From Candidatus Omnitrophica bacterium UBA6215 (lineage in GTDB: Bacteria; Omnitrophota; Gorgyraeia; Pluralincolimonadales; Pluralincolimonadaceae), in the NCBI GenBank assembly GCA_002421665.1, contig DISH01000007.1, positions 145,278-209,277 of the forward strand: a DNA stretch of 64,000 nt, read 5' to 3'. Positions 6,495 through 64,000 of this stretch are shown one piece after another (the first letter of the stretch is position 1; every line of letters starts with the position of its first letter). The translations under genes were made by a program, and so were the position numbers. Under the pieces are notes generated by a model. That model worked only from the letters and a program-made list of their open reading frames with translations, had not been told where the DNA came from and searched no databases.

Positions 6495-9400
6495 TCATCA
6501 CCTTTTCCCGATACCAATATAGTAGCAGGCAGTTTGTTAAATGTAAACTCTTTACCTGAGCGCGGATCGTTAAAAACGAACCCGCCGGGAGGGGACGCTT
6601 TTCCGCTGACTTCGAGCTTAAGACCCTTGCTATACGGTTTCAAAGAAAAACTCACGTCTCCATAATATGTCGGCAGCCCCTGCGCTTTTATCTCCTTTCC
6701 GGATACCGCCCACTCTTCAGGTATGCCTGCACCGATGACAAGTTTATCCCCGACCTCATAGACGAACATGTTCCTGACCGCGCATATATACTCGGCGCCT
6801 ATCCAGGTATGCGGCATGTCGCCTATGTACTGGGGATGGCGGTATCCGCTGAAGACAACCTCGGCCCAGTGGTTCCATTCGCGCGGCCGCTTGACTGTCT
6901 GGAAATATTCAAGCATCCTGAAGGCCTGCTCCCTTTTACCCATGAGTATTAGCGCGGATATTGAGCGCACCTCATATGGGGTAAATCCGCCTTTCCAGCC
7001 TTCGCCGGAACGGGGATCGAGCGATTCCCTTAAATACTTATCGAAGGTATTATCCAACTGGGGCCGAGGCAGGTATTCAAGCTGGCTGCACGGGAATACC
7101 GCGATAGCAGTCGAAGTGGCATCAAAATCCCCTTTATCGGCGCAGCCCGGGATAAAATCTATTCCCTTGACATTCATCGCCAGGTCGATGGATTCGTATA
7201 CGGACTTCCTGAAAGACGTCTTCTCGGAGTCTATCCACTTCGCCGCATCTTCCTTGCCGAGGATACGGGCTATTGAACCGGCATCCTCCCATCCTTTAAG
7301 GGCCCAGAAATCATCCCAATAGCTGTGCATGGCCGGGAAATAGCCTTCGTGGCTGTTCGACTCCGGAAGGATCCCGCAAAACACTTTAATATTGTCAGCG
7401 CCCTTGCAATAATAATCCGTAAGCCTTTGCTTCCTGAGCTCGACGAGGTATTCGAGCGCCTTCATTATGTTCGGCCATTTATCCTCAAGGAATTCCCTGT
7501 CGTTGGTAAACCTGTAATAATCATAGATAGAGAATATGAACTCTCCTTGGCTGTCATATTCTTTCCAATCCCTGCACCAGCCGGGCATGCCCCCTTCTTC
7601 AAGTATGAAAGGCACCATCCCGTTGCCATACTGGCGCTGCGCTATCCAGTCGAGGAACTCCTTAACGTCGTCCCTGTAACCCATCCTTAGCAGGGCCGCG
7701 GAGATCAGGGCTCCGTCGCGCATCCAGGCCTTCTTGTAATTGCGCGAGCCCGGTTGGAGCTTAAGGATATCCTTATTGATAAGGATATATCCCAGGTTGG
7801 ACTTCATCGCGTTTATTATCTCTTCGTCCGGGACTTCTATGTTGACCGCGTCAAGCTTTGCCTGCCAATATTTTTTCTGCTGTTCGAGCAACCCGTTGAA
7901 ATAACCGCGAGCCTGGGAAGCTGCCGCAGGAAGATTCCCGACGTTGCCGTGCAAAGGTACGGCAAAAAAGAGGTCCGCACCCTTCCCCGCCGGAAGGCTC
8001 AAGGAATATTCCAAGGCTCCGGAAGCATACTTATCCGGGTCATCGACCGCCCTGCAAGAAGGAACGCCGCCCTTTTCGATATAATCCGTGATATCATTGT
8101 CCCTGTACCTGACAACCCCGAAATTATCCGGTTTAGAAACAGGTATCAGCGCCGGCACTCCGTTGATCCTTACAACGGCAGGAGCGCCGCCCTCGAAAGA
8201 AACGGACCTTATCTCGGAAAGGCCCCCATGCTGCCAGGGGGGATTTACCTGGAAAGGTCTTACGGTAAGAAAAAATTTTCCGGAAAACTTCTCTTGCGTC
8301 CTGTTCTCTATCGTATACCAAATATATGCGGCGGAACTGCCTCGGTCCCCTGACGCGAACAACCTTTGCGTAAAGACCAGGCCGTTACGCTCCCATTCCA
8401 CCTTGGGCAAAGGCAGGTAGTCCTTTTCGAGAGATTGCGTTACCTTCGAATTGCATGAGGTTATGAGTTCTGAACCGTCATAAATATAAGGCATGAACGA
8501 GTAACTGCCAGAATACGGCTCTATCGTGCCGTCCTCGCACAGGAGGCATTCCTTGTCATCCCCGTCTATGCCCACGACGGTCCAATACGCCTGCTGCCTG
8601 TTCAGCCATCTGGGGTAATAGCCAGCAGGGGTCTCCTCGGCAAGCAACTCGAAATGTTTTTGCGGGGTCGCAGATTCATCCGGGCCTTTAAGCATCAGTT
8701 CTTTCAGGGAATATCCGCTGCCGGTATTGCTCTGGCGGCATTGCACTTTTATCGACCTGGCCCTTGCAGGATCCAGGTATATCAGGTCCTTGCTGCCGTT
8801 CCCTTTTTCGTTCGAAAACACATTTTTCCATGAATTGCCGTCTTCGGATATCAGGATATCGTAGGACTTGGCATAATTGAGGCCCCAATTCAACTGTATC
8901 CCGCCTATATCCTTCTGTTTTTTCAGGTCAACCGTTATCCAGGCCTCACCGCACGAATCGTTGAGCCATTCGGTCCCGCGGTCGCCGTCAAAGGCGTTAG
9001 ACGGATCGCTTATGTCCTGGGTACAAGAAGCCGTTACGACCGGTTCCTCATCCGCGCCTTTGACCAGGACCTCAAATACCGAGTATCCCCAGAACGTCCC
9101 GCGCTCTTTCATGAATATCCTTACGTATCTGGCAGGGGCCTTCCTGAAATAGACCTCATCCGTCCCGCCGTCGCTGTCGGTTATCTCGTAGACCGTCTTC
9201 CACTCGGAATTATCGGATGATATCTGGACTTCATATGATTTGCCGTAGGCGGCTTCCCACTTTATGGTGATACCGCATATCTCGATGGTTTGCCCGAGGT
9301 CTAAAAGCAGCCACTGAGGATCCGAGAATTGACTGCTCCACCTGCTCTGGTAATTGCCGTCGACGACATTTGCCGGGCGATAGAGATCGCTTTCGCTGGA

Positions 9401-9508
9401 AGATGCACAAACCTGCACGGCGGAAGGCCGGGCCTGGCCGCTGCAAACGAAAATATAGGACAGGGAGATAATGAATACGGCAAGAACGGTCCTGAGGTTC
9501 TGGTTCAT
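6491..9508 (-). CDS. secreted protein: 2x F5/8 type C (discoidin) domains + six-hairpin glycoside hydrolase domain (GH15/COG3387-like, WMRDGA motif)
   Basis: 1005 aa; signal peptide; two discoidin-like repeats (RWSSQFSDPQWLLLDLG; GTEWLNDSCGEAWITVDLK); C-terminal ~650 aa with YKKAWMRDGA. Confidence 0.5.
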   Translation of the reverse strand: MNQNLRTVLAVFIISLSYIFVCSGQARPSAVQVCASSSESDLYRPANVVDGNYQSRWSSQFSDPQWLLLDLGQTIEICGITIKWEAAYGKSYEVQISSDNSEWKTVYEITDSDGGTDEVYFRKAPARYVRIFMKERGTFWGYSVFEVLVKGADEEPVVTASCTQDISDPSNAFDGDRGTEWLNDSCGEAWITVDLKKQKDIGGIQLNWGLNYAKSYDILISEDGNSWKNVFSNEKGNGSKDLIYLDPARARSIKVQCRQSNTGSGYSLKELMLKGPDESATPQKHFELLAEETPAGYYPRWLNRQQAYWTVVGIDGDDKECLLCEDGTIEPYSGSYSFMPYIYDGSELITSCNSKVTQSLEKDYLPLPKVEWERNGLVFTQRLFASGDRGSSAAYIWYTIENRTQEKFSGKFFLTVRPFQVNPPWQHGGLSEIRSVSFEGGAPAVVRINGVPALIPVSKPDNFGVVRYRDNDITDYIEKGGVPSCRAVDDPDKYASGALEYSLSLPAGKGADLFFAVPLHGNVGNLPAAASQARGYFNGLLEQQKKYWQAKLDAVNIEVPDEEIINAMKSNLGYILINKDILKLQPGSRNYKKAWMRDGALISAALLRMGYRDDVKEFLDWIAQRQYGNGMVPFILEEGGMPGWCRDWKEYDSQGEFIFSIYDYYRFTNDREFLEDKWPNIMKALEYLVELRKQRLTDYYCKGADNIKVFCGILPESNSHEGYFPAMHSYWDDFWALKGWEDAGSIARILGKEDAAKWIDSEKTSFRKSVYESIDLAMNVKGIDFIPGCADKGDFDATSTAIAVFPCSQLEYLPRPQLDNTFDKYLRESLDPRSGEGWKGGFTPYEVRSISALILMGKREQAFRMLEYFQTVKRPREWNHWAEVVFSGYRHPQYIGDMPHTWIGAEYICAVRNMFVYEVGDKLVIGAGIPEEWAVSGKEIKAQGLPTYYGDVSFSLKPYSKGLKLEVSGKASPPGGFVFNDPRSGKEFTFNKLPATILVSGKGDE

Positions 9509-9536
9509 GGATTAGCGGCCTCCTCTTTTAAAACTC

Positions 9537-9575
9537 GCGGACAATTATATATCTTTTTGTCCGCCGGCGCAATAA
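9537..9575 (-). promoter_or_regulatory. candidate promoter/operator of hydrolase-lacI operon: inverted repeat GCGGACAA-N12-TTGTCCGC enclosing TATAAT; TTGCGC -35 at 17 bp
   Basis: Seen directly; perfect 8-bp arms at 9537..9544 and 9557..9564; minus-sense TATAAT at 9549..9544; AGAGGAGG RBS before ATG at 9508. Confidence 0.35.
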
Positions 9576-9714
9576 TATTACCCTCGGTCTTCCGCGCACG
9601 GGGGCTAAGGTTAGCGCGATCGGCCGCCTGGAAGAACAGGACCGGCCCCGCATTGATCGTCAATTGTGGGGGATGAGATTTTTGCAGGACCGGCCCCGTG
9701 AACCTCGTTGTAAG

Positions 9715-10356
9715 TTACTTCTTCTTTTTTGAAACGCCGAGCAAGCCTATCAAGCCGGAGCCCAAAAGAAGCAGGCTCGCCGGTTCCGGTACGGGTTGAG
9801 TATCAGCGACTACATCATCAAAGTAGACCGAACCGCTCGATCCGGTACCGTTGTTCCTGAGCAAAAGCGAGAGGCTCGCCTTCGCCGTCCCGGCAGGTGC
9901 CACCTGCGCGAGGCAAAGGTCTTCCCACCCGCTGGTTGAGGTATTGCGCGTCACGGTATATGCCTGACCGATCTGCGCCTCGCCGGAATCCACGAATTTA
10001 ACCTCAAGGACCGCTTCTGCATTTACCAAAGCTGTAGGAATATTGACCGGAGCCGTCGCATAGAGCGTCTGCCCTTCGGTCACCGAAGCCCACTGGCCCC
10101 AACCACCCCAGCCGGAGCCGGTTATGGCCTCCTTGCCGGAATAGGAACCGCTCTTTACTATTGAGCTTTCCCTGGTACCTGTGATGTCAGGATCGCTGAA
10201 CATATGCCACCAGTCTCCGGGAACCTGTTCGCCGCTGCTACCCCATGGGCCCCAGGTCTCAAAACCGGGATTCGTAAGGGAATTAGAGGCGACTGCCGCG
10301 GAAGACTGCAAAAGTACCGTTCCGATGAACAATCCCATCAAGATGATCTTCTTCAT
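9715..10356 (-). CDS. PEP-CTERM-anchored secreted protein with CBM4_9-like carbohydrate-binding module
   Basis: 213 aa; signal peptide; NSLTNPGFE start of CBM4_9-like fold; C-terminal VPEPASLLLLGSGLIGLLGVSKKKK = PEP-CTERM motif + TM + basic tail (exosortase substrate). Confidence 0.8.
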   Translation of the reverse strand: MKKIILMGLFIGTVLLQSSAAVASNSLTNPGFETWGPWGSSGEQVPGDWWHMFSDPDITGTRESSIVKSGSYSGKEAITGSGWGGWGQWASVTEGQTLYATAPVNIPTALVNAEAVLEVKFVDSGEAQIGQAYTVTRNTSTSGWEDLCLAQVAPAGTAKASLSLLLRNNGTGSSGSVYFDDVVADTQPVPEPASLLLLGSGLIGLLGVSKKKK

Positions 10357-10403
10357 TTATTCACCTCCTTTCGATTTGGTTTTTCTCCCCGGTTAAATTT
10401 TAT

Positions 10404-10417
10404 TGCCCACGTGGGCA
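10404..10417. promoter_or_regulatory. perfect 14-bp palindrome TGCCCACGTGGGCA upstream of PEP-CTERM gene
   Basis: Seen directly; ~50 bp upstream of start codon at 10356; one of three related CACGTG-centred palindromes. Confidence 0.4.
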
Positions 10418-10501
10418 TATATCTTCAAAAAAATATCCCTCAATGCCTACGCTACTGGCCCCGCCCGCTCGCCATAAGGCGAAAAGGCAGGGCCAACTGA
10501 C

Positions 10502-11092
10502 CTATTTAACTAAGGCTATATCATCGATGTAAATAGTACCTTGTTTCTTAGCCGAACAGGTCATATCGTCGAAAACGATCACGAACTCGGTGATCGAGCT
10601 GAGGTCCGTCAGTCCCGAGAAAGAGCCGAGCGGTATTACCGCTTCCTGCCAATCCTTCGATATGTTATCGTAAGTATACCTGCCTACCTCCCCCTTCGAG
10701 TTCTTGAGCTCAAGCTTTATCTTCTGCGAGAATCCGGCAACTCCGTCTCCCTTGACCCAGAAAGACAGCTTGTCATATTTTGTTGCATCCTGGTTAGGCA
10801 GTTTCATCCAGAAACCGTTATACGCGGGATTGGGCGAGTCTACATCATAATCCAGCTGGACCGAAAAACCGTTACCTCCATGCTTAACATCAGAGGTGAA
10901 GTTGGTCTTGCATCCCTGGGTCGTATCGTTGGGATCCTTGTCCCATGCCCCGAAATCCCCTCCCAGGTTGTTGGGTTTGTCACCGGAATCGAAATTCGCT
11001 ATGACAAGAGTGGCCGCGTAACAAGTACCAGAAAGAACCAATACTGCGATCAAAGCGAAAAAGAGACATGATATTTTATTCATCGAAGTCAT
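10502..11092 (-). CDS. secreted beta-sandwich carbohydrate-binding-module-like protein (CIA30/CBM11-like)
   Basis: 196 aa; signal peptide; paralogous (~50% identity by eye) to C-terminal module of 11293..12528 protein (KPNNLGGD..W..DPND.TQGC...YIDDI). Confidence 0.5.
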   Translation of the reverse strand: MTSMNKISCLFFALIAVLVLSGTCYAATLVIANFDSGDKPNNLGGDFGAWDKDPNDTTQGCKTNFTSDVKHGGNGFSVQLDYDVDSPNPAYNGFWMKLPNQDATKYDKLSFWVKGDGVAGFSQKIKLELKNSKGEVGRYTYDNISKDWQEAVIPLGSFSGLTDLSSITEFVIVFDDMTCSAKKQGTIYIDDIALVK

Positions 11093-51990: not shown

Positions 51991-52953
51991 CTAATATTCA
52001 TCGGGAGAATAGGCTTCATTGTCATCCGGCATATGCTTAACGTCAGGATTTAATGGAGGTCTATACAAAAATTTGTCTACCTCGAGATCCCTTGAGCCAT
52101 CGGGATTAATGTAGTAGTCAATATAACCTCTGAAAGCGATCTTGCCGTATTTGCCATCCGGGGTTTTGAAGTAATAATAAATATCTCCCTGTTCCTTATC
52201 CGCATTATCGGCAGGACAGATGGTCTGGACATAGCCGTCTTCAGGGGCCTCTGGCATCAAATTAAAATTATTATATAATTCATTTAGGGCGCTCTCGCGT
52301 TGAGGTAGACCGGGACAATATACAAAACCACCGGGTTCTTTCATGGTATAGATATGTTGATTATTTTCGTTTATATCAAGTACTATATCAACGGGAACAT
52401 CCTTGTCAACAGGATAATACCATCTTTTGGCAAATGACCAACCGCATTGTTTGCCGAAGGATTGTTTTTCATCTAAATCTGGAATATAGGCATTTTCAGT
52501 ATATTCAAGCTTGGAAGAAACACCCTTAGGTATTAGATACAAGATTGTATCTCTGCTGGTTATCTCCGTAGCAACCCTAACAGGAAAACCATCCTCTTCC
52601 TCGATAATCCTTTTACTCCTAGGGAGTTTGACAGATATCCTATGGTAACCTTCTTTTTCGGCCGTTACAGTTATATATGATGCTTTTCCACTCCAGCTAA
52701 AATGTCCATTTGAAACTTTAAATTCATAAGATTCTTCTCTAGATCCTACGCCATCAACGGAAGCAGCATCGGGAAAAGTAATCTCTGCGGTTATTTTTAT
52801 CAACACTTCTTCATTGAACAAATTTCCGTTTTTATCAAATACTTTGCCAGAAATATCAACCGGAAATAAATTTTCCTTGGTCACCTCTTCCGCCAAGGCC
52901 ACTGAACTAAAACATATTAAACTTAATATGATAGTAAATAATAGCCTTTTCAT
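51991..52953 (-). CDS. secreted hypothetical protein (candidate immunity/partner of upstream lipase-like protein)
   Basis: 320 aa; signal peptide; 4-bp overlap with upstream gene; AT-richer than genome. Confidence 0.5.
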   Translation of the reverse strand: MKRLLFTIILSLICFSSVALAEEVTKENLFPVDISGKVFDKNGNLFNEEVLIKITAEITFPDAASVDGVGSREESYEFKVSNGHFSWSGKASYITVTAEKEGYHRISVKLPRSKRIIEEEDGFPVRVATEITSRDTILYLIPKGVSSKLEYTENAYIPDLDEKQSFGKQCGWSFAKRWYYPVDKDVPVDIVLDINENNQHIYTMKEPGGFVYCPGLPQRESALNELYNNFNLMPEAPEDGYVQTICPADNADKEQGDIYYYFKTPDGKYGKIAFRGYIDYYINPDGSRDLEVDKFLYRPPLNPDVKHMPDDNEAYSPDEY

Positions 52954-55900
52954 TTTTTCTCCTTATAATAATACTTTTCCGGATCTTTAAGAAACATAAA
53001 ATATTCCTGCACATCATAATAATATTCATTCATCATACTGCTATGGCTTCTAATACCGTACGGTCGATAATCTTTATCTACGTTCATGATTTTACCGGGA
53101 GGATAAAAAGTATCGTTAAATAACTTTGTGTATTTAGACCTTGCGGCATTTGAACCCAAAGCTTGATATCCATATTCAAGCATACACTGTTTATAATCCC
53201 ATTCGCTCTTAACAAGCTTATAAACGAGGTCTAATGGGGTAGGAAATGAACGTACTACATCATTTGCTTCATAAGCATCTGTTAGAGCCCTATCAACTGT
53301 TGAAAAAGTATTATATATATTTTTCTTTACTACAGATATGCTTGGACCATACATATTGCCAAAAAACCCATAATATCTGTTGTTCCTTTGATTGAATCGT
53401 AAATTTTGCGGATTACCAGTAAATACTTCACCAGGTATTGCAGCTTCAGCTAAAATAACATTATCTATTATCTCTCCCTCGCTATTAGAAAGCAACCTTA
53501 AAGCATAACACATTATATTATTACCTAAAGAGTGTGCTCCAACATTAATTTTTGAATCCGGGAATTGTGCTATTGTATCTGTAATTATATCTGCAAAAAC
53601 TTGTCCGGTTTGATAAGATACCACCCAGTCTGCATTAAAATCAATGGTTGACATTAAATCATTCGGCCACTTATGAGCTTTCCAAACAACTCCAATAAAA
53701 CCTCCCCTGAATCCGCTCCTATAAAGCCTCTTATAAATAGTATTGAGTGACCGAACCGATACATCATATGTGTTATTATACCCATGGGTCCAAATCAGTA
53801 TGACATCAGGATTATCAGGATATATATTCCCATGACCAACTTCAATTTCTTTATTTCTAAAACGAGGGATGTCATCGAATTGAGTGGTAGTCGGTCCGGT
53901 CCTTACATTGTAAAGCCTATACATTTCACTAATATTTTTCAACGTAATAATAGCTTCGTCCAACACAATCTTTCTCGACGTGTTGCCGTTAATAAGCTCT
54001 ACCTCGAGGATAATCTTGAGATCGCCTTCTTCTACCCCTTCGAATGTGCCGTAGAATTTGCCGTCGGAGTCAAACCATGAGGAATCAAGAAGTTCACCTT
54101 TTTTCTTGGTGTCAGAGTCGGAAGGGAGGAGGAATTTCTCTTTTTCGATAAATTGTTTCTTTGAATAACGTAAATCTGTCAAAAAAGCATCGTTTACCCT
54201 CTTAAATACCCTAATCTTGCCTTTTCCCTCAGTCTTAAGATAGAACTTCACATTCTGGTTATTAGCCCATTCCTTTATGTTGGCAACGGTTATATTAATC
54301 GGCATGAAGTCTTCAAGATCGCGAATACCGTTGATTCTATCATCATAAGTATCGCACTCTCCGCTTGCTAGATTAGAATTATTGTCGTCAGGATGGACTT
54401 TTGACTCGTCATAATCGTCATCATCATTCACCCAGAATACGCAGCCGGGGGAAATCATCTCGCAGGCGTTATCATCACCGCCGAGGAAGCCGTCGTTGTT
54501 GGAGTCAATTAAAATATCGCCCGTAAGGCCTTCGTGAAATTCAGCCGCAAAATGCTTATCAATATACCCTCTATAGATCCTGAAACCCTCGGCATAATAA
54601 GGCGTATCAACACTGATGCCGAAATCGGTATCGGGTTTTACATTATCCAATACCACATAAGATGTCCTCGGCTCAGGCCCAAGCTGCGCCAGCTCCATTC
54701 CGTTGACCTTATACCCGCTTATCGATGATATCGTATATCGGGGAAAGAACGGGAGATCCTCTAAAAACGAGCAATTCTTAAGCACAACAACAAATGGTTT
54801 ATTGTCTACCGGAGGGGAATGCAGCGTAATAGATGTCTTTATAGAGCCATGCCCTCTATAAGTTTCTAAACCGCTGTAATAATACAACTCCGGATAATTC
54901 TCAGCGAAATAATACGGTATGCTATCATCGTTATAATAATACAGGCCCGGTTTATTAAGGGGGATATCATAACGATACCCCTTTTCCGGGTAAGGCCAAC
55001 TCCCAAACGGAGGTTCTCCGAACAGGTCTTTATTATATGACTGGATGGTCTGGTAAGGAGTGGACATCTGAAAACCGTCTTCAAGATCATATACATCGGT
55101 TCCAAAAATATGCGTCATCACGAACATCTGATAGTAATAATATTCCACCCTGTCCTCATACGCCTTGCCGTCTTCCGGTTTTATGACGACTTTAAGCTCG
55201 TTCTTGCCGGAGTGATTTTCGGGGTTGACTTTCATGATAATGTATTCGGCGGAATCGGAATTGATCTTTTTCCTGCGCGCCTCACCGGGAGATACGAGCG
55301 TCGGGCCCTCGAACGTACCGTCGGCCTTATCAAGGGTGCAAGACTGGCCGTTGACCGTGATAGAGGATATCCCGGCGTCCTTGTTGAACCTGCCGCCGAT
55401 TTTAAGCTTATTCTCGGTAATGACCTGATCGAAATACGGGGAAGTGAACACGACGTCTGCGGAACTCGCCGTGTACTGCGAAGCATTGCTCTGGTACTGC
55501 GGAGGGGTATAACTTGTTGTGACGGCGGTAAGCACCTTGCGCCTTGGCCCCGGTTCGGAATATCCCTCGGCGGTCAGGCCCGAATTAAAAGCAACGGTCT
55601 CGACTAAGCTGCCGCCGCCTAAATTGAGCTTCTTCTTCTCCGACCGGACGGTATACGATACCAGCCTTCTCTTTCCGTTTATATCGGTCATATCGATCAA
55701 GAAGGTATTGACCCCGTCCTTGAGCCGTATATCTTTTATCTCAAAACCGTTATCGACTATCTCGACCGGCTCGCCTTTGAACTTGACCAGCTTGGCCTGG
55801 AAGTTGTCTTTCAGCCGGCCCTTGAGATCGAAATGGTCGTCATAGATCACACTCGACTGGGACGGAGAAATAGACTCGAATCCCAATGGAAGGCTCAAGT

Positions 55901-55985
55901 CGATATCCGACCCTGAGGTCATTTCTATTGGGATCAAGCTGAACAGGATTATTGAGATTACAAGGAATGTAAGCTTTTTAGACAT
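52950..55985 (-). CDS. large Sec-secreted protein with C-terminal alpha/beta-hydrolase (lipase/esterase-like, GxSxG) domain
   Basis: 1011 aa; signal peptide; C-terminal ILIWTHGYNN ... VGAHSLGNN (GHSxG nucleophile elbow, DUF900/PGAP1-like pattern); Asp-rich linker; C-terminal coding part strongly AT-rich. Confidence 0.6.
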   Translation of the reverse strand: MSKKLTFLVISIILFSLIPIEMTSGSDIDLSLPLGFESISPSQSSVIYDDHFDLKGRLKDNFQAKLVKFKGEPVEIVDNGFEIKDIRLKDGVNTFLIDMTDINGKRRLVSYTVRSEKKKLNLGGGSLVETVAFNSGLTAEGYSEPGPRRKVLTAVTTSYTPPQYQSNASQYTASSADVVFTSPYFDQVITENKLKIGGRFNKDAGISSITVNGQSCTLDKADGTFEGPTLVSPGEARRKKINSDSAEYIIMKVNPENHSGKNELKVVIKPEDGKAYEDRVEYYYYQMFVMTHIFGTDVYDLEDGFQMSTPYQTIQSYNKDLFGEPPFGSWPYPEKGYRYDIPLNKPGLYYYNDDSIPYYFAENYPELYYYSGLETYRGHGSIKTSITLHSPPVDNKPFVVVLKNCSFLEDLPFFPRYTISSISGYKVNGMELAQLGPEPRTSYVVLDNVKPDTDFGISVDTPYYAEGFRIYRGYIDKHFAAEFHEGLTGDILIDSNNDGFLGGDDNACEMISPGCVFWVNDDDDYDESKVHPDDNNSNLASGECDTYDDRINGIRDLEDFMPINITVANIKEWANNQNVKFYLKTEGKGKIRVFKRVNDAFLTDLRYSKKQFIEKEKFLLPSDSDTKKKGELLDSSWFDSDGKFYGTFEGVEEGDLKIILEVELINGNTSRKIVLDEAIITLKNISEMYRLYNVRTGPTTTQFDDIPRFRNKEIEVGHGNIYPDNPDVILIWTHGYNNTYDVSVRSLNTIYKRLYRSGFRGGFIGVVWKAHKWPNDLMSTIDFNADWVVSYQTGQVFADIITDTIAQFPDSKINVGAHSLGNNIMCYALRLLSNSEGEIIDNVILAEAAIPGEVFTGNPQNLRFNQRNNRYYGFFGNMYGPSISVVKKNIYNTFSTVDRALTDAYEANDVVRSFPTPLDLVYKLVKSEWDYKQCMLEYGYQALGSNAARSKYTKLFNDTFYPPGKIMNVDKDYRPYGIRSHSSMMNEYYYDVQEYFMFLKDPEKYYYKEKK

Positions 55986-56041
55986 AATGACATAACTTTA
56001 TAAAGTGTCATTAGTCTACCTTTTATCCCCCGGATTGTCAA
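55986..56041 (-). promoter_or_regulatory. promoter TTGACA-N17-TAGACT plus inverted repeat AATGACA-N13-TGTCATT overlapping start codon of lipase-like gene
   Basis: Minus-sense TTGACA 56041..56036, TAGACT 56018..56013; IR 55986..55992/56006..56012. Confidence 0.35.
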
Positions 56042-56066
56042 CACAAATCTCGATACGTGTTTACAT

Positions 56067-56813
56067 TCACTCCGTTATCGCGAAATCCGCGTGGACCACG
56101 GCAAAGACCTTCTTCTCAAGCGAGGTTGTGTCGTTCTCGCCCCAGGCGGAGACCTCTGTGGAGTTTACCGGAGTTATCTGAAAAACACCCATATCGGCGG
56201 AGCGTATCCTGCCTATCTTGTTACCGGAAGCCGCGGCTATCTTCCCGGCGCGTTTCTTGGCATCCGCAGAGGCCGCCGCGAGCATCTCGAGTTTGAGCTC
56301 GCCCAGTTTTGTGTAGAAATACTGCGGCGCGTCCGAGACAAAGCGTATATCCTGCTCGATGAGCTCGGTCGATTCGCGCGAAACAACCGTTATCTTGGCG
56401 ACATCGGCGGAACGCACTTCCACCCGCTGGTTGAGGACGTATGCCTCGATGTCGTTGGTAAAGTTGCCCTTCTCGTTCCTCTTGTAGATGGGGGTGGTCT
56501 CGACCTGCGGGATTATCATCTCGTCGTCCGAGATGCCCTTTAACGCGAGGTAGGCCTTAACTTTTGCGGTATCACCTTTGAGTTTCGCGAACGCTTCTTT
56601 AAGCTGCGCGTCGCGGACTGAAAATCCCGATGTCCACACCGAATAATCCGAGACTATCTTCTTCTCGGCGGAACCCGTTACGTTGATGACCTCGGCCGAG
56701 GCCTTCTTGAATCTTATCAGGCCGTCCGAGAGTATCATCGTCGATATTATCGTGCCCAGCGCGATGCAAATTCCCAGTACCACAACCTGCACATTCTTCA
56801 AAGAACCGAACAT
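56067..56813 (-). CDS. SIMPL domain (DUF541, BP26/OMP28-like) protein
   Basis: 248 aa; N-terminal TM/signal; two-lobed SIMPL pattern. Confidence 0.55.
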   Translation of the reverse strand: MFGSLKNVQVVVLGICIALGTIISTMILSDGLIRFKKASAEVINVTGSAEKKIVSDYSVWTSGFSVRDAQLKEAFAKLKGDTAKVKAYLALKGISDDEMIIPQVETTPIYKRNEKGNFTNDIEAYVLNQRVEVRSADVAKITVVSRESTELIEQDIRFVSDAPQYFYTKLGELKLEMLAAASADAKKRAGKIAAASGNKIGRIRSADMGVFQITPVNSTEVSAWGENDTTSLEKKVFAVVHADFAITE

Positions 56814-56831
56814 CTCTCTCCCCTTTACTTT

Positions 56832-57335
56832 TTAGATCTTGCGCGCGTCATAAGCCCAATGCAGCAGGGCCTGGCGCTGTTTCCTCCTGCAATCCAAATC
56901 CTTCGGGCGGCAATTCTTCTTTACCGCCATAACATGGCGCTTAATGGCCTTCCACCTCCTTATCTGCCGGTCGTCCTCGGCGGGTATGCGGCGGCCCATG
57001 TAATAACGGCAATACCATTGGAACCAGCCGCGTGGGTCATCGGGGTATATCCATCCTTTATCCTGCCACGCCCTGAGCGGCAGGGAAGCGTCTACCTTGA
57101 AATAATTGAGCAGCGGGTTTTTCTTCTTTGGCGAGAGTTTTGCTTTCGTGAACCAGCCGCGGGGGAATTCCCTGCGGCAATCGGTCATGTATTTGCCGCC
57201 GAAGACCCCGAGACGCAGCATCTCCTTCGGGGTAAGCTCGGGCTTGAATTCGGGGCCGAATTTCTTGCCCATAGGGGCCGTCAGGTAATAAGCGTAGCCC
57301 TGTTGCATCTTATCATTGACGATGACTCTTTTCAC
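56832..57335 (-). CDS. conserved hypothetical Trp/Arg-rich protein
   Basis: 167 aa; GVFGGKYMTDCRREFPRGWF...GWFQWYCRYYMGRR; native GC. Confidence 0.5.
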   Translation of the reverse strand: MKRVIVNDKMQQGYAYYLTAPMGKKFGPEFKPELTPKEMLRLGVFGGKYMTDCRREFPRGWFTKAKLSPKKKNPLLNYFKVDASLPLRAWQDKGWIYPDDPRGWFQWYCRYYMGRRIPAEDDRQIRRWKAIKRHVMAVKKNCRPKDLDCRRKQRQALLHWAYDARKI

Positions 57336-57366
57336 TTTACAACCTGTCCCTAACTGACACGTCCCA

Positions 57367-59646
57367 TTAATACAGGGTTATCTCGTATATCTCGCAGGTG
57401 CCGTCACCGGAGTTACCCGGGAAATAAAGGTCAAAGTTGCGTATGGCCTGCAGGTCCACGGTCTTGTTGCCGGACTGGTTGCCGAAGACCGTCCTGAGCA
57501 TGAACTGGTCGAACGGGTAATCATACGTCATGACGGCCCCGTCGCCGGCGTTGGGCTCCGACGAGAAACTCTCACCGTCGGCGCCTTTTATGCCTTTGTA
57601 CTCAAGCTTTCCCAGTTCGTTCGCGCCGGACTCGTTCATGAAGAGCGAGAACGGCAGGTTATTCGACACGGACATCTTTATCCTTATGCCCTTGTATCCC
57701 TGGAGGTCAACGGACGTATCCCCGTTCTTCACCTTGAGATCGCAGGGAATATTAAACCCGCATCCCCAGCCGCTGCCGGTAGTGACCTCGCATTTCAGGA
57801 AGGCCGCGCCTTCGGCATCGGTCTCTTTCGAGAACTTAAACCCGGCCGCAGACGAGCTGTCTGCCCATACACCTAAGCGCCTGACGTTCAGCTCGGCTAT
57901 GTCGCAAAAAGCGACGGACGGCCTGGCCTCGGACTTATTGTTCACGGAGGCATAACCGCTTAAGGAAACCGCCTTGTCCGGGTAAGGCAGTTCGGACTTC
58001 TTATGTACGGTATCGGCTTGCTTGTTGGTCTTCTTCATCTGCCCGGTAAGGATCTCGTATTCCTCGTCGTAGATATCCACTATGCCGTAATTACTGTTCT
58101 CGCCGTCAAAACTGCGGCCCTGCGGCGACTGATCGAAATAGTCGAACCAATGGTAACCGACCAGGTACGGGAACTCCATTACCTGTGTAACGTATTTGTC
58201 GAAGCCCGTGGCCCTGTCGGCCTGGGTCTTTACGGTGACATCCGCACCCTTGGTGTTCTTGTCTCCGCTGCGGTTCTCCATGGCCCTGTAAGAGAACTCG
58301 GTTATCATTATGGGTTTCTTGCAGATAAAATAGTAATTATCGAAGAGTTGCCTGTCCACCTTCATGTTCTTGCAGTAATAATTGACCGAGACTATGTCGC
58401 AATGCTCGCCGCAAGCCCTGGCCACGTCGTCAGGCGCGTTGCAGGCAAAGCGCACGCCAAGGATAAGATGGTTGGGGTCGTATTTCCTTATGGTGTCGCA
58501 TATCACCGAGAAATATTCGTCCGCGACGATCCCCGCGAACTGCTCGCGCGCCTCCCTCGACTGCGCGCCGCGCACCTTCATGAAATCATCTATGGATTTA
58601 TTGTAGGCACACTGCAGGAACTCCTCGAGCTTTTTCCTGCCAGGGGCGTTATCCGGCAGGCGCGAGTATTCGTCGAGCAAAAGCGGAGCGTGGCCCGTAT
58701 ACCAGCCGACATCACCGTACCACGGAAGCTCGTTATCGATATAATATCCGACAAGGTATTTCGCGTCCCTGAACCTCTTGCATTTGCCCGCGACAGTCGC
58801 TTCCACGTTCTCGATGAACATAGGATCGAACACGTCAACAAGGCGATGGTCTGTGGTCGAAGGGATACCCAGCATGACGGTAAAAGGCATATCATAGAAA
58901 TAAGTGGCCGCGTCCGACCACGAGCCGATGGTATTGAACTTCCATTTCTTCAACCGCTTTATGGCATCTTTCGCCCAATCCTCGCGGCTCTTGTATTTTT
59001 CGGAGACGTCGTAATACTGCGAATTCTGGAGCACCGCGCCGTCCTTATCGAGGACAACGTTGACTCCCTTGGAGATGAACGGCCTCCCGGAAGGATCTAC
59101 CAGCCAATATTTATCGCCCTTCTGCTCGACTTTAAAGAATTTCTTGCCTTTGGGTATCGAGACACGCTTCGGGAGGTTCTTATATGGCTTCCCGGCATTG
59201 AACTCTATCTCAAATATCGAAAAACCCCAGGCGGTAGCCCTGTCGGCGCAATCTATCTTCACGAACCTGCACTCGGCGGGTTTCTTGAAATTTATCCTGA
59301 TATCCTCTCCCTCGTTGCCGTCGGGGATCTCGGCAAGGACCTGCCATTGCGAGCCGTCAAGCGAGCCGAGTATCTTGTATGTATACGCCGATGCCGTCTC
59401 CCACTTTATGCGGATCCCGGTAAGGGTAACGGGCTCCTCAAATTCCAACCGGAGCCACTGGTCGTTCTTCCACTCCGACTCCCAGCGCGTGCGGTCTTTG
59501 CCGTCAACGGCTTTAGCGGGAAGGTTATTGTCGTAGTCGGATGAGGCCGTAACGGACTTAATAACCGGGGAAGGGATATCCGCAGAAGCCGCGGAAAAAA
59601 CGAACAGGAAAGACAAAAGGACCATAAAGCCGGCAAGCTTTTTCAT
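57367..59646 (-). CDS. secreted discoidin-domain protein with clan GH-A TIM-barrel glycoside hydrolase domain
   Basis: Start moved to MKKLAGFMVLL signal peptide; F5/8 type C domain (RWESEWKNDQWLRLEF); YIDNELPW (acid/base NE) and MITEFSY (nucleophile TE) motifs. Confidence 0.5.
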   Translation of the reverse strand: MKKLAGFMVLLSFLFVFSAASADIPSPVIKSVTASSDYDNNLPAKAVDGKDRTRWESEWKNDQWLRLEFEEPVTLTGIRIKWETASAYTYKILGSLDGSQWQVLAEIPDGNEGEDIRINFKKPAECRFVKIDCADRATAWGFSIFEIEFNAGKPYKNLPKRVSIPKGKKFFKVEQKGDKYWLVDPSGRPFISKGVNVVLDKDGAVLQNSQYYDVSEKYKSREDWAKDAIKRLKKWKFNTIGSWSDAATYFYDMPFTVMLGIPSTTDHRLVDVFDPMFIENVEATVAGKCKRFRDAKYLVGYYIDNELPWYGDVGWYTGHAPLLLDEYSRLPDNAPGRKKLEEFLQCAYNKSIDDFMKVRGAQSREAREQFAGIVADEYFSVICDTIRKYDPNHLILGVRFACNAPDDVARACGEHCDIVSVNYYCKNMKVDRQLFDNYYFICKKPIMITEFSYRAMENRSGDKNTKGADVTVKTQADRATGFDKYVTQVMEFPYLVGYHWFDYFDQSPQGRSFDGENSNYGIVDIYDEEYEILTGQMKKTNKQADTVHKKSELPYPDKAVSLSGYASVNNKSEARPSVAFCDIAELNVRRLGVWADSSSAAGFKFSKETDAEGAAFLKCEVTTGSGWGCGFNIPCDLKVKNGDTSVDLQGYKGIRIKMSVSNNLPFSLFMNESGANELGKLEYKGIKGADGESFSSEPNAGDGAVMTYDYPFDQFMLRTVFGNQSGNKTVDLQAIRNFDLYFPGNSGDGTCEIYEITLY

Positions 59647-59666
59647 TCGTGTCTCCTTTTTCGGTA

Positions 59667-60617
59667 TTACAGGTACGGGCACTGCCCTCCGCTCTTGAGG
59701 ATGAGGCAATCGCGGGCACAGGCTTCCGTCTTGACAAAAACCTCGCTGTCGGGCACTGCCGTCATTATATCGTTCTCCACCTTCCTGCAGATGTCATCCG
59801 CCTTCGCGAACGGCATCTCCAAAGGAAGCGTTATCTTCAGGTTGATGAACTTCCTGTGTCCCGAACTGCGCGTCCTTATGTCGCTGAACCCGCAGAAGAG
59901 CCCCGCGTTCTGCGCCAAGCTCACCACTACATCCATCTTGCTCGGCTCCTCTATAGAGGCATCGAGCAGGTTAAAGAACGCTTTCTTGGCAATACCGAAA
60001 GACGGTATCGCGATGACAATGCTTACCAGCATCGCGACCCCGGGGTCAAGATAGAGCGCTATGCGGTCCTTCCCGGCGGACGTCAGCATCATAGACGCTA
60101 CGAACGCGCACGCGATGGCAAAGGATATCACTCCCTCAAGCAGGTAGTGGATACCCTCCGCGCGCACTGCCGGGGAACGGCTCTTCCTGCCCATAATTAA
60201 TATATAGTATGAACCCCCGAAATTCAATGTGAAACTCAGGATACTTGAGGCCAGGCCGAGCCACGGGTTGGTGATGTGTTCGGGGTGCACCAGGGACTTT
60301 ACTGACTGCGATATCATCGCGAACGCGATGCCGATAAGAACTATCCCCTCTATTCCCTCGCAGACATTCTCTATCTTACCGTAACCGTAGTTGTGCATAA
60401 TGTCCGCGGGACGGTGGGCGAGTTTCAGCGAATAATAGAGTATTATAGAAACGCTGAGGCCGGTAACCGTTATCGCAAAATCCGTCGCTATGGCAAGGGA
60501 GCGTACTATCGCGAAAGCCGTTCCTTTGAAGATGAAAAGCGCGATGTTGCACCAAAGGCTGACGAGCGCGGCCCTCATTACGTATTCCTGCCTGTTGATA
60601 CGGCTGACTTTTGCCAT
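59667..60617 (-). CDS. cation diffusion facilitator family transporter
   Basis: 316 aa; 6 TM; HxxxD-type metal sites, C-terminal cytoplasmic domain. Confidence 0.85.
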   Translation of the reverse strand: MAKVSRINRQEYVMRAALVSLWCNIALFIFKGTAFAIVRSLAIATDFAITVTGLSVSIILYYSLKLAHRPADIMHNYGYGKIENVCEGIEGIVLIGIAFAMISQSVKSLVHPEHITNPWLGLASSILSFTLNFGGSYYILIMGRKSRSPAVRAEGIHYLLEGVISFAIACAFVASMMLTSAGKDRIALYLDPGVAMLVSIVIAIPSFGIAKKAFFNLLDASIEEPSKMDVVVSLAQNAGLFCGFSDIRTRSSGHRKFINLKITLPLEMPFAKADDICRKVENDIMTAVPDSEVFVKTEACARDCLILKSGGQCPYL

Positions 60618-60628
60618 CTATGCCTTTA

Positions 60629-60886
60629 TTATTCTTTCGCTTTTTTATCCAGGTCCTTGAGTATCTCTTTTGCATCCGCGGCATCGCCGCGGGAAACGAG
60701 TATCTTCACCGGCCCGACAACCGGATTTAAGCCGCCGAGGTTGCCCCAGGCGATCAAGTCCTGCGCGTTCTCATCCTCGACAAAAAACTCTATTCCCGCG
60801 CTCGCCAAAAGAGATTTCGCCGTCATGATATCCGCGCGTTCGAACGAGCTGAAAACTATTACCGGGGCGTCTTTCATATTTGACAC
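60629..60886 (-). CDS. DUF2007 family small protein
   Basis: 85 aa; pattern consistent with DUF2007. Confidence 0.45.
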   Translation of the reverse strand: MSNMKDAPVIVFSSFERADIMTAKSLLASAGIEFFVEDENAQDLIAWGNLGGLNPVVGPVKILVSRGDAADAKEILKDLDKKAKE

Positions 60887-60995
60887 TCCTCTTCATCACT
60901 TAATATTTTAACACTTTTAAACAATTGCGGATATCTTTTAGCTTCAAATGTATGAATTTAATAAGAAACTCGCTGTTTAAATATGCCGCGGTGGA

Positions 60996-62372
60996 TTAGG
61001 AGTTGCATTTCTTGAACTTACTTAATAAATGTCCAGCTTCAGTGCGGTTAATAAAGAATGTATCGTCGAGAATATTGGTTTTTAAGAATAAGCGCATTGT
61101 ATAATCATCACTCATTTTGGCCCAGTCATCAATCGCCCTGCCTAATAATCCGTCCTGCTTGAGATCGCTCCTGATATTATAGTTATCGAGAACTACGGCT
61201 CCCATAATGTCTTTCTTAGATATTTCTTCCTTCCGCGCGAACCTACAATCTACGGCTTTCAACAACCCAAGTTTTACCTTCTGCTCTAGAACATTTTTAT
61301 AGGTCGACATGAAATCGTCGTATTTGTCATATACTATATCTATATATCTTTTAGTCTGTCCGGAAAATACACTTTCTATTTCTTTATTGTTTTTATTTTT
61401 TAGTTCGATTACCGCAAAAGTAAATATGTTATCCTTTATCCTTTTAAGTCCTAACAAATCGATCCTACAATCCTTCTTGCCCGGATAAACAACCTGCCTG
61501 TCTATAACTAAAATACCATTTTTACCTATGGCGCGGTTATCGATAAAATGATTTATCTCGCTTACGCCTTCGGAAATATTTCCCCTTTTATGGGCTACGA
61601 TTTTAGCGATTACCTGCACCATAATATCATTGAAACACTTGGAATCATTTATATCATCAATACTAATCTGCCATTTTCTAGGCCCATAAGCCTTTACCAT
61701 GCTGTTTGTCGTAGCTAACGATCCTCTTGGGCTGAACTCGTTAGAGGCAATAAGGCAATAACCCTTCCCTTTTCTTCTTACCTCTACCGTATGACCCAGG
61801 AAATATAAATCGAGGAAATTGTCCCTTATTTCAACCATAAATGATTTTCGGTTCTTTCGCTCAAACTCTAATATATATCGTAATCTTCCTTTAATTAGAT
61901 CACTAATAAACTCGTCGTCCAGGCCTCGAAAAACACGTTTATCCTTACAGTCTTTATCAGGTTTTGGATTGGCAATTAGGCACGCACCGGGTAATGTCCT
62001 TAACAACCTTTTACCAGTAGAATAGCGCTCCATTTCTTCAAGCTTAAGAGGAATATTTAATTTTTTAAGATTATTGAAGCCATAATAATATTTCCCTGTT
62101 TCCGATTCGCATCCGGGCAGACGATATCTATGCGGATTTTTGTCCGTAACCTCTATCAAATTTGCCATATGGGATATTTCTACCTTACCCGCCGGTCTAG
62201 CTGTCAATTTAAAATACACCTTTGCGATATCTTCATTTATTGCTTTTTTTATAGGTGAGTCTGTCTTAAAATACAACTTGGTTTTTCCTGTCCTAAAGTA
62301 ATTAAACGCAGCTTCAATCCATTTTTGATTAACCAATGCTAGCAACGCGGCTCTACCGCTATTCTCTTTCAT
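60996..62372 (-). CDS. uncharacterised protein with C-terminal PD-(D/E)xK nuclease-like motif (candidate defense nuclease, possibly Shedu/DUF4263-like)
   Basis: 458 aa; AT-rich; ...GKKDCRIDLLGLKR...FAVIELKNK...Q..Y matches D-(n)-ExK; 12 bp downstream of mrr. Confidence 0.45.
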   Translation of the reverse strand: MKENSGRAALLALVNQKWIEAAFNYFRTGKTKLYFKTDSPIKKAINEDIAKVYFKLTARPAGKVEISHMANLIEVTDKNPHRYRLPGCESETGKYYYGFNNLKKLNIPLKLEEMERYSTGKRLLRTLPGACLIANPKPDKDCKDKRVFRGLDDEFISDLIKGRLRYILEFERKNRKSFMVEIRDNFLDLYFLGHTVEVRRKGKGYCLIASNEFSPRGSLATTNSMVKAYGPRKWQISIDDINDSKCFNDIMVQVIAKIVAHKRGNISEGVSEINHFIDNRAIGKNGILVIDRQVVYPGKKDCRIDLLGLKRIKDNIFTFAVIELKNKNNKEIESVFSGQTKRYIDIVYDKYDDFMSTYKNVLEQKVKLGLLKAVDCRFARKEEISKKDIMGAVVLDNYNIRSDLKQDGLLGRAIDDWAKMSDDYTMRLFLKTNILDDTFFINRTEAGHLLSKFKKCNS

Positions 62373-62383
62373 ATATATCCTTA

Positions 62384-63283
62384 TTACTCGTTAAAATAAT
62401 CAGAATCTATCTTCTTAACTTCGAAAGTTGCCGAAGAAAACACTCCGACATTATTTTCAATCATAAGTTGCGCGAGCATCTCGCCATCAATAAGCACAAT
62501 CTTGTTATCAATATTTTTTACGAAATCCAACGCTTCTCTGGAAAAACTTGAAGTTGTAATAAAAACGCCTTTCTTCGCATGCTTGCCAATTAAGGCACCG
62601 GCAAACCTTTGAATCTCCGGACGACCGACTTGAGCATCCCAACGTTTTGCTTGTATATAAATACAATCTAACCCCAAACGATCCTGATTTATAATCCCAT
62701 CTATCCCTTCATCACCTCTTCTGCAGAGAGCCTTCCCAGCATCTTTTCTTGAGCCTCCATACCCCATGCCTAAAAGCACTTCTACCACTAATCTTTCAAA
62801 AAATGCCCAGGAACAACGCATGATCTGAGTTAATAATTCCTGAGCTAACTCATCTTGAATCTTCCTGTATCCAGCTTCAAATAAATCATCCGGAGTACTT
62901 TGCATCTCCCCTTTAATAACGGGAGTCTCAGTTTTAACATCTTCTTTCTTTAACCAAGATCTAAACCTGGGAATCTTCAAAAGAAATTCAATGTTAATCT
63001 CTTTCGTGGTTTTCAGGATCCTCATTCCTTCATCGCTAATTGACCAATATCCCCACCGCGGAGAATCAATTAATCCGGCTTTATTTAAGTAGTTTCTCGC
63101 CCAAGCAACGCGATTGCCAAAAACAGGGTTTCTACCGCTGGGCTGCATTTTTGCCAACTCTTCTTCAGTTAGCTTAAACTGCTTCGCTAAAATATCTATA
63201 ACCTCGCTTTTATGGTGTTCTTTTTTATCCGATAAAACTTTTAATAACGGCAACATAATAGTTTCAAAATCAGGAATAGCCAT
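62384..63283 (-). CDS. mrr: Mrr-family type IV (modification-dependent) restriction endonuclease
   Basis: 299 aa; N-terminal Mrr_N winged helix (MAIPDFETIMLPLL); C-terminal Mrr_cat GDEGIDGI...IYIQAKRW...GVFITTS closely parallels E. coli Mrr. Confidence 0.9.
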   Translation of the reverse strand: MAIPDFETIMLPLLKVLSDKKEHHKSEVIDILAKQFKLTEEELAKMQPSGRNPVFGNRVAWARNYLNKAGLIDSPRWGYWSISDEGMRILKTTKEINIEFLLKIPRFRSWLKKEDVKTETPVIKGEMQSTPDDLFEAGYRKIQDELAQELLTQIMRCSWAFFERLVVEVLLGMGYGGSRKDAGKALCRRGDEGIDGIINQDRLGLDCIYIQAKRWDAQVGRPEIQRFAGALIGKHAKKGVFITTSSFSREALDFVKNIDNKIVLIDGEMLAQLMIENNVGVFSSATFEVKKIDSDYFNE

Positions 63284-63286
63284 TTG

Positions 63287-64000
63287 TTAATCTCCTTTTT
63301 CATTCAATTCTTCGACAACTTCTTTAAATTCCTCCAACGCGGATTCCAGTTCCTTAACAATATCTTCGGCGATTTCATTAGGTTCTGGTAAATTCTCCAA
63401 ATCTTCCAAAGATTCGTCTTTGAGCCAGAAGATGTCCAGGCTGACTTTGTCACGCTTGAGGATTTCATCGTAGTCGTAAGCCTTGAAGCGCTCGCTTTCT
63501 TTGCGCTTGGCCCGGTTATCCGGATTGTAGCACTTGATAAAATCCTTCAAATCTTCAAACTTTAAGGTATTTTCTTTCAAAGTAAAATGCTTATTCGTGC
63601 GTAGGTCGTAGAACCAAACCTTAGAAGTCCAGGGCTTTTCCTGCGCCGGCTTCTTGTCAAAGAAAATTACGTTCGCCTTCACCCCCTGGGCGTAGAAAAT
63701 CCCCGTAGGCAGACGCAAAATAGTATGCAGGTCAAAATCATGCAGGAGTTTCTTCCTCACTGTCTCCCCTGCCCCTCCTTCAAACAAGACATTATCCGGC
63801 ACCACCACCGCAGCCCTGCCGTGGACTTTCAAAATCGAGGCAATATGCTGGACAAAATTCAGCTGCTTGTTCGAGGTCGTGGTCCAGAAATCATCGCGCT
63901 CATAGGAATCTTTTTCTTTAGCCGTCTTGCCGTCTTCACCAATAACCGTGGTCGAGCTCTTCTTGCCGAAAGGCGGATTGGTCAAAACCATCTCAAAATG
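63287..64000 (-). CDS. hsdM: type I restriction-modification N6-adenine methyltransferase HsdM, C-terminal part (5' end beyond window)
   Basis: LTNPPFG motif IV followed by VVPDNVLFEGG...RLPTGIFY typical HsdM; ORF open to window end. Confidence 0.85.
   Translation of the reverse strand, partial: HFEMVLTNPPFGKKSSTTVIGEDGKTAKEKDSYERDDFWTTTSNKQLNFVQHIASILKVHGRAAVVVPDNVLFEGGAGETVRKKLLHDFDLHTILRLPTGIFYAQGVKANVIFFDKKPAQEKPWTSKVWFYDLRTNKHFTLKENTLKFEDLKDFIKCYNPDNRAKRKESERFKAYDYDEILKRDKVSLDIFWLKDESLEDLENLPEPNEIAEDIVKELESALEEFKEVVEELNEKGD

Follow-up and report, generated by a model that had tools for sequence, protein, structure and literature searches.

We analysed a 64,000-nt stretch of contig DISH01000007.1 of Candidatus Omnitrophica bacterium UBA6215 (hereafter the window), in particular an AT-rich island at its end and an uncharacterised 458-aa open reading frame (ORF) in that island, which we call X. 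Between 60.9 and 64.0 kb, three co-oriented ORFs lie on the minus strand, a partial hsdM, mrr and X, separated by gaps of 3 nt and 11 nt. The GC content is 0.52-0.54 at 57-60.5 kb and 0.36-0.40 at 61-63 kb, and the drop occurs at ~60.9 kb. The order and spacing of the genes, the drop in GC content and the identities of hsdM and mrr all agree with a first-pass annotation of the same sequence, which had called the region a defence island and X a single-gene nuclease candidate. X itself is a fusion between a lineage-specific extension and the core of an unnamed family of predicted nucleases, and it has lost a partner gene. The features of the region are as follows, in the direction of transcription.

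63287..>64000, minus strand: C-terminal part of hsdM, a type I restriction-modification (R-M) methyltransferase (Pfam N6_Mtase, 2.5e-35; PADLOC MTase_I, 1.8e-96)
62384..63283, minus strand: mrr, a type IV (modification-dependent) restriction endonuclease of 299 aa (Mrr_N, 1.6e-30; Mrr_cat, 3.5e-34; PADLOC mREase_IV, 5.8e-88)
60996..62372, minus strand: chimeric ORF X of 458 aa, an ORFan N-terminal extension followed by a conserved two-domain core of predicted nuclease type (ORF and Shine-Dalgarno sequence)
61938..62372, minus strand: N-terminal extension of X, residues 1-145, lineage-specific (no homologues except the same locus in P0138/L075)
61587..61937, minus strand: core domain 1 of X, residues ~146-262, α-α-β6-α, of the YjbR/YdhG(DUF1801)/CyaY-like 'double-wing' class
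61164..61586, minus strand: core domain 2 of X, residues ~263-403, predicted PD-(D/E)xK nuclease domain (E268/E272, D291, D305, E323-L-K325, Q339...Y343)
60999..61163, minus strand: C-terminal α/β extension of X, residues ~404-458, family-specific, with an FLKTN(V/I)LD motif and the ending ...KKCNS
60874..61008, minus strand: deletion scar of a β-CASP/metallo-β-lactamase (MBL) partner gene (tblastn and direct reading of the 5' codons)
60629..60886, minus strand: DUF2007 gene, the first GC-rich gene of the core genome, which marks the island boundary (Pfam DUF2007, 5.2e-09)
59667..60617: cation-efflux gene, which follows the DUF2007 gene (Pfam Cation_efflux, 2.1e-35)

The Mrr protein carries a winged-helix Mrr_N domain and a catalytic Mrr_cat domain, each matched over its full length in Pfam. 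X starts with an ATG that has a Shine-Dalgarno sequence (AGGA) 6 nt ahead of it. A consensus scan around X for a promoter or terminator of its own scored no better than shuffled sequence.

The 458-aa protein had no match in Pfam, NCBIfam, PADLOC v2.0, PHROGs or PDB sequences; Pfam and PADLOC hits by hmmscan were reported down to E<=1, and PDB was searched by phmmer and also by family profile. Among 5.8 billion proteins, we found 149 homologues, mostly from Omnitrophota. They are typically 316-324 aa long, 54-93% identical, and span only residues ~146-458 of X. The conserved core comprises only ~313 aa, and the first 145 residues are an addition. Where the source was named, the homologues came from metagenome-assembled genomes (MAGs) of Omnitrophota, Aminicenantes, Atribacterota, Acidobacteriota and Eubacteriales, and from one Asgard archaeon. 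The family is rare and patchy: it was present at five loci among 185,579 species-representative genomes, four of them in Omnitrophota, and was absent from the viral contigs, phage and plasmid collections searched. An exhaustive profile search with X returned only ~15 cluster representatives at E<1e-30, together with a broader, likewise unnamed family of 275-300-aa proteins that is homologous to X over both core domains (hhalign 99.9%, E 1.6e-31, X residues 145-403). The C-terminal extension is absent from the distant members of this A4 superfamily. Within the superfamily, the only Pfam families with any signal were the stand-alone PD-(D/E)xK domains HSDR_N and HSDR_N_2 (PF04313, PF13588), and that signal was very weak: three of the 68 distant members reached E~1e-3, and protein P0100 had a precomputed match to PF04313. 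Because the window protein had no match at E<=1, it is not a member of HSDR_N by Pfam criteria. By these library searches, X represents a new and unnamed PD-(D/E)xK family. Of the two possibilities raised by the first-pass annotation, a Shedu-like protein or a new family, the latter thus holds.

An AlphaFold2 model based on a 121-sequence alignment had a per-residue confidence (pLDDT) above 90 for residues ~146-458 and below 50 for residues 1-145. The core is modelled as two domains, a YjbR/YdhG-like α-β-α domain and a PD-(D/E)xK domain. A D...ExK...QxxxY core had been noticed earlier in the C-terminal half of X, and these motifs proved to be invariant and to fall on the canonical α-β-β-β-α fold in the model: E268/E272 on a helix, D291 on β1, D305 on β2, E323-L-K325 on β3 and Q339/Y343 on the following helix. 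The PD-(D/E)xK superfamily is marked by acidic residues on β2 and β3 with a lysine on β3, and its RecB/NucS-like members by QxxxY on the helix after the ExK strand. D305, E323, K325, Q339 and Y343 are invariant across the 121 family members, and X of the window retains all 36 invariant residues of the family. As modelled, the active site is of the RecB/NucS type, and domain 2 is predicted to be a NucS/RecB-like, Mg2+-dependent nuclease domain. In domain 1, the helices pack on one face of a 5-6-stranded antiparallel sheet, which is the 'double-wing' arrangement, and its best structural matches were the DNA-binding double-wing proteins YjbR and MotA-CTD. No Pfam match to the YjbR/MmcQ (PF04237) or YdhG/DUF1801 models was found at E<=1. 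Domain 1 is a putative DNA- or ligand-recognition domain, and DNA or a DNA feature is most likely what it recognises.

In structural comparisons, the nuclease domain scored highest with NucS (2vld, 9.6, 21% identity), followed by Upx (9wuf, 9.0), the Shedu protein SduA (8ps4, 8.0), the Hachiman protein HamA (7.6), Can2 (7.4), N.BspD6I (7.3) and FokI (6.6). Foldseek searches of PDB and BFVD with the whole chain returned no significant match. NucS/EndoMS is a RecB-like PD-(D/E)xK mismatch endonuclease, but no relation to X was detectable at the sequence level. The N-domain of NucS is β-barrel-like, whereas that of X has the YjbR/YdhG-like α-β-α fold. In addition, NucS is a conserved repair gene, whereas X occurs rarely and in islands, frequently as a pair with a β-CASP gene. 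By Pfam and PADLOC, X is also not Upx, SduA, HamA (8vxy) or Can2, and its accessory domain differs from theirs. It lacks the helicase partner of HamA (HamB) and the CARF domain of Can2, and its partner, when present, is a β-CASP MBL enzyme. In joining a recognition domain to a PD-(D/E)xK cleavage domain, X would resemble Mrr, McrB-N-containing and FokI-like enzymes and nuclease fusions with YjbR domains. The YjbR fold is a DNA-binding fold of the 'double-wing' type and is listed as structurally related to McrB-N (PMC3424535), and YjbR-nuclease fusions are known from defence contexts (PMC7641849). However, none of these enzymes is characterised by coupling to a β-CASP gene. X has no sequence match to YjbR (PF04237) or DUF1801, and any modification dependence is hypothetical.

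We fetched 82 loci. The neighbour survey was based on 74 related loci, and 35 distinct loci were informative for coupling to the MBL gene. An MBL-fold gene of 407-447 aa was the sole recurrent neighbour of X (18 loci). It was coupled to X in 14 of the 35 informative loci and absent from the other 21. The two genes always overlap by 13 nt, or by 4 nt in the most divergent pair, and the MBL start codon lies within the last codons of X (...AA ATG CAA C...). For this reason, X ends in K-C-N in the coupled loci. The partner has Lactamase_B_2 and RMMBL domains and an intact HxHxDH motif (HSHMDH). It is β-CASP-like, as its closest solved relatives in PDB are EF2904, archaeal CPSF and RNase J. In a neighbour-joining tree of 121 X proteins, a 'CN' clade (47 of 121) is separate from a solo 'NN' clade (74 of 121), and the CN terminus tracks the MBL-coupled clade. 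X of the window (...KKCNS) nests in this CN clade, beside P0001 and P0002. The view of X as a single-gene candidate therefore needs correction, since its clade is normally coupled to an MBL gene. Two of the MBL partners were compared with the PADLOC v2.0 models and matched none of them, and a full-text literature search found no description of the pair. X and the MBL gene are likely an undescribed two-gene system. A Rosetta-stone fusion of the two was sought, and the search gave just one sub-threshold RMMBL match (E 0.007), which we did not use as evidence.

The conserved pairing of X with a β-CASP gene, together with the deletion scar in the window, is the most informative result of this study. 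The scar lies at 60874-61008. Its 5' piece begins with an ATG at 61008, inside the end of X, and retains codons 1-8 (MQLLIHRG), which can be read directly from the sequence. Its 3' piece corresponds to residues 381-407 (IHTFEAKRYPQLFKSVKILSDEEECQI*) at 60957..60877 and was found by tblastn with the MBL protein of locus L001 (81% identity, E 1.8e-8). Both pieces are in one frame, so an internal deletion of ~370 codons has left a 135-nt scar. At 60874-60886, the remnant's stop codon shares bases with the ATG that opens the DUF2007 gene (…CAAATATGAAAGAC…). Because of this overlap, the island abuts the first core gene without an intergenic spacer.

Two other genomes have X in the same slot, with different states of the partner. 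Loci L001 and L002 come from an Omnitrophica MAG that shares ~73% identity with the window genome in its core flanks. Beside the cation-efflux and F5/F8-type-C genes, they carry hsdM, hsdS, AAA_15/21, hsdR, two small ORFs, X (303 aa), MBL and further genes. Locus L017 comes from the closest relative, with flanks 96.8% identical to the window genome, and its slot contains hsdR, a 159-aa ORF, X (319 aa) and an MBL pseudogene, which has suffered three deletions inside the gene and contains a stop codon. Thus, the MBL gene is intact in L001, a pseudogene in L017 and a scar in the window, and the same flanking genes border different island contents and different R-M systems. DNA homology between the window and L001/L017 extends from about ORF residue 142 to 15 nt beyond the X stop codon. 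The DNA of the X core is ~91% identical between the window and L001, whereas the core genes are only ~73% identical. The dN/dS of the X core was 0.11 against L001 and 0.14 against L017. The higher identity and the low dN/dS show that X has moved between lineages and has, overall, evolved under purifying selection.

The first 145 residues of X have no database match other than the same locus in another assembly (P0138/L075), and no similarity to any neighbour across the 74 related loci. A known domain was therefore rejected as their origin. Derivation from the small upstream ORF of L001 or from the HAD-like upstream gene was also rejected, as no similarity was found. From base composition, the probability that a further 145 codons contain no stop in DNA of ~36% GC was estimated at ~3e-5. 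These codons have no homologue and occupy the slot of the small upstream gene of relatives, which indicates that island turnover made the 458-aa ORF as a chimera. X of the window is an in-frame fusion that was orphaned from its MBL partner, and a damaged example of the module.

N-terminal additions recur in the X family. The solo-clade proteins P0035 and P0042 and that of locus L031 (423-467 aa) have an N-terminal γ-glutamylcyclotransferase/AIG2-like domain (PF13772 and PF06094), and P0100 has a different N-terminal domain of ~115 aa. Locus L028 (~6000-11000) contains two X paralogues (321 and 324 aa), one on either side of an oppositely oriented 458-aa ORF. At L062, L068, L070, L073 and L074, short fragments from the interior of X, 36-190 residues long, lie mid-contig. 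Like the MBL pseudogene of L017, these fragments suggest frequent decay of the module.

The same genome continues beyond position 64000 in L075, JGI contig Draft_10000043 (IMG 3300001592). Compared with window 54001-64000, L075 has no substitutions and eight single-base insertions over 10 kb. Three of the insertions split X into ORFs of 210 and 208 aa. This split suggested that X is a pseudogene, an interpretation that we rejected as insertions without substitutions look like draft-assembly errors. The gene calls of P0138 are truncated artefacts for the same reason, X being split artificially. The order in L075 is HATPase_c_3, ..., a type II (D12) methyltransferase, hsdS, a PDC-S31-like gene, a 210-aa ORF, Ymh/HEPN, a 337-aa ORF, hsdM, mrr and X. 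Here hsdM is full-length (484 aa, MTase_I 2.2e-199). The interval between hsdS and hsdM contains the PDC-S31-like protein (279 aa), the 210-aa unknown protein, the Ymh/HEPN protein (280 aa; PD-Lambda-3_B/Aga_HEPN-like) and a 337-aa protein with a weak SIR2 match. Together with hsdM and mrr in the window, the hsdS, type II methyltransferase, PDC-S31-like candidate and Ymh/HEPN genes upstream confirm the defence island. The first-pass annotation had reported neither hsdS nor hsdR. Both are indeed missing from the window, but hsdS lies 3.4 kb upstream of hsdM, just past position 64000. A tblastn search with an HsdR query gave no match; it covered the window and the 10 kb that L075 provides upstream of X, which reach ~7.6 kb upstream of hsdM. 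Of the components of a complete type I R-M system (HsdR-HsdM-HsdS), hsdM and hsdS are thus present, and there is no hsdR in the sequence covered.

Every annotated X locus is a defence island, with type I R-M, Mrr_cat, GmrSD_N, McrBC, BrxL, AbiEii, Ymh/HEPN, nSTAND3, RT and Fic genes among the neighbours, and this setting holds across phyla. In several loci, Mrr- or GmrSD-type genes are immediately beside X. A small, tightly coupled and variable gene usually lies upstream of X in relatives and often encodes a nucleotidase or phosphatase in the coupled clade. One form is a HAD/PNKP-like phosphatase of 139-166 aa, at gaps of +1/+2 or -4 nt, which occurs at the start of X in the MBL-type loci L005, L019, L020, L058 and L065. 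A SurE nucleotidase takes the same position in L047. This suggests a three-gene operon of phosphatase, X and MBL in one subclade. Other upstream genes encode unknown proteins of 129-159 aa (11-nt overlap with X), a 175-aa TPR protein (14-nt overlap), DUF6994, SurE and a Cas4-like protein. ARPP-1 (PF20208) lies upstream of solo-clade X in five loci (L030, L031, L039, L041 and L056), within a few hundred nt in four of them (~90-220 nt in three) and elsewhere in the upstream flank in the fifth. HD_4 was found near X in five loci, and L003 also has an ADP-ribosylglycohydrolase. HAD/PNKP-like proteins, SurE, HD_4, ARPP-1 and ADP-ribosylglycohydrolase are components of ARG-centred conflict systems (PMC9503650). 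X itself had no match to REase-ARP (PF22558). The distant X-like protein P0174 is fused to a REase-ARP/PDDEXK_13 domain, the sole such case. The ARPP-1 neighbours and this fusion connect the X family with ADP-ribose conflict systems of the ARG/ARPP type (PMC9503650).

Taking the family, fold, gene coupling, scar, fusion and defence-island context established here together, we consider it probable that the window ORF belongs to an unnamed family of defence-island nucleases and is a rearranged copy without its partner, derived from a module of X and a β-CASP enzyme. In the intact module, X would recognise and then nick or cut invading DNA, and the β-CASP enzyme would degrade the DNA from the break by exonuclease action. 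Cleavage by X might depend on modification or structure, or infection might trigger it. In the genome studied here, island turnover would have put the hsdM-mrr block upstream of X, swapped its own start for 145 ORFan codons in frame and removed ~370 codons of the MBL gene. As X combines a putative recognition domain with a NucS-like domain, has no cognate methyltransferase and is often adjacent to type IV enzymes, we infer that it is a restriction-like DNA endonuclease; the activity of this particular copy is uncertain. Since every invariant residue is kept, X of the window may still act alone in this way, as the natural solo clade presumably does. We suggest more tentatively, and with considerable doubt, that X, the β-CASP MBL enzyme and the small variable upstream gene form an undescribed anti-phage system. 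X would then sense and cut some feature of the invading DNA, perhaps a base that is modified or ADP-ribosylated, the β-CASP enzyme would degrade the target, and the fusion in the window would be a natural swap of the sensor module.

Several points weigh against a working restriction-like nuclease. Nuclease activity, a DNA substrate, an anti-phage role and a functional state of the window copy are all deduced properties. With the partner deleted and the N-terminus replaced, the ORF may be an inactive relic that has no stop codon yet. We regard it as quite possible, though on the whole improbable, that X of the window is non-functional and has been decaying since the loss of the MBL gene and the replacement of its start. 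The reduction of the MBL gene to 135 nt would fit such decay, as would the MBL pseudogene in L017, which indicates erosion of the module in this lineage, the low pLDDT of the ORFan N-terminus and the position of the fusion junction exactly at the recombination breakpoint. However, 458 codons remain fully open in AT-rich DNA behind a good Shine-Dalgarno sequence, all 36 invariant residues are kept, and the 21 of 35 loci without an MBL gene form a large natural clade, so X can evidently stand alone. The dN/dS of 0.11-0.14 also argues against decay, although it averages the whole divergence between alleles and says nothing about selection after the loss of the partner. The substrate is a further point of doubt. 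Many β-CASP enzymes are RNases, and neighbours of the HAD/PNKP-like, SurE and HD_4 types would go equally with RNA or nucleotides as the substrate. It is unlikely, in our judgement, that X, its partner and the phosphatase neighbours target RNA or nucleotides, as an abortive-infection RNase, in RNA end-processing or as an ARG/ARPP-type effector. The RMMBL 'RNA specificity' domain of the partner and its relatedness to CPSF and RNase J point in this direction, together with the recurrent coupled HAD/PNKP-like phosphatase, SurE, HD_4 and ARPP-1 genes, the ADP-ribosylglycohydrolase of L003 (parts of ARG systems, PMC9503650) and the REase-ARP fusion of one distant X-like protein. In contrast, the structures closest to the nuclease domain belong to enzymes that act on DNA (NucS, Upx, SduA, HamA and type II/IIS restriction endonucleases) and the top matches of the N-domain are DNA-binding (YjbR and MotA-CTD). 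Moreover, each phosphatase or ARPP neighbour occurs in no more than five loci, and none is in the window.

The remaining two explanations concern known proteins. The first-pass proposal also named Shedu (SduA/DUF4263, PF14082), but the structural likeness to SduA is not specific: NucS and Upx score higher than SduA, HamA and Can2 score about equally, and the resemblance is at the superfamily level only. Neither DUF4263 in Pfam nor SduA in PADLOC was matched even at E<=1, and the YjbR/YdhG-like N-domain, the conserved motifs of its own and the β-CASP partner of X are foreign to Shedu. A Shedu-family effector is hardly credible on these grounds. X might also serve the adjacent type I R-M system as an additional or alternative nuclease subunit, or be a repair endonuclease of NucS type with a housekeeping role. 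We regard this as very improbable, as most X loci carry no type I R-M genes, presence in 5 of 185,579 species genomes and in variable islands fits a housekeeping gene poorly, and identity of ~91% in X against ~73% in the flanking core indicates exchange between lineages. We retain the rearranged, partner-less nuclease as the best account of the window ORF.

Defence-island nucleases without a cognate methyltransferase, such as Shedu, HamA of Hachiman, Upx and type IV enzymes, form a class that is expanding and for which few triggers are known. To this class, X adds an unnamed two-domain architecture, with a YjbR/YdhG-like domain and a NucS-like PD-(D/E)xK domain, and a conserved, translationally coupled β-CASP partner in a pairing that matched no PADLOC v2.0 model. 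The locus also displays island turnover at base-pair resolution across three related genomes. The impact is limited by the rarity of the family, its confinement to uncultivated anaerobes, the damage to the window copy and the inferential nature of all functional statements.

No tRNA gene or Rfam family that might mark an integration site was found in the window. A second AT-rich patch lies at 51991-55985 on the minus strand (GC 0.34-0.39 vs ~0.52 for the window). It contains a 1011-aa ORF with a DUF900 α/β-hydrolase domain (residues 725-860), which overlaps by 4 nt with a 320-aa ORF that had no Pfam or PADLOC match. This patch may be another horizontally acquired two-gene cassette.

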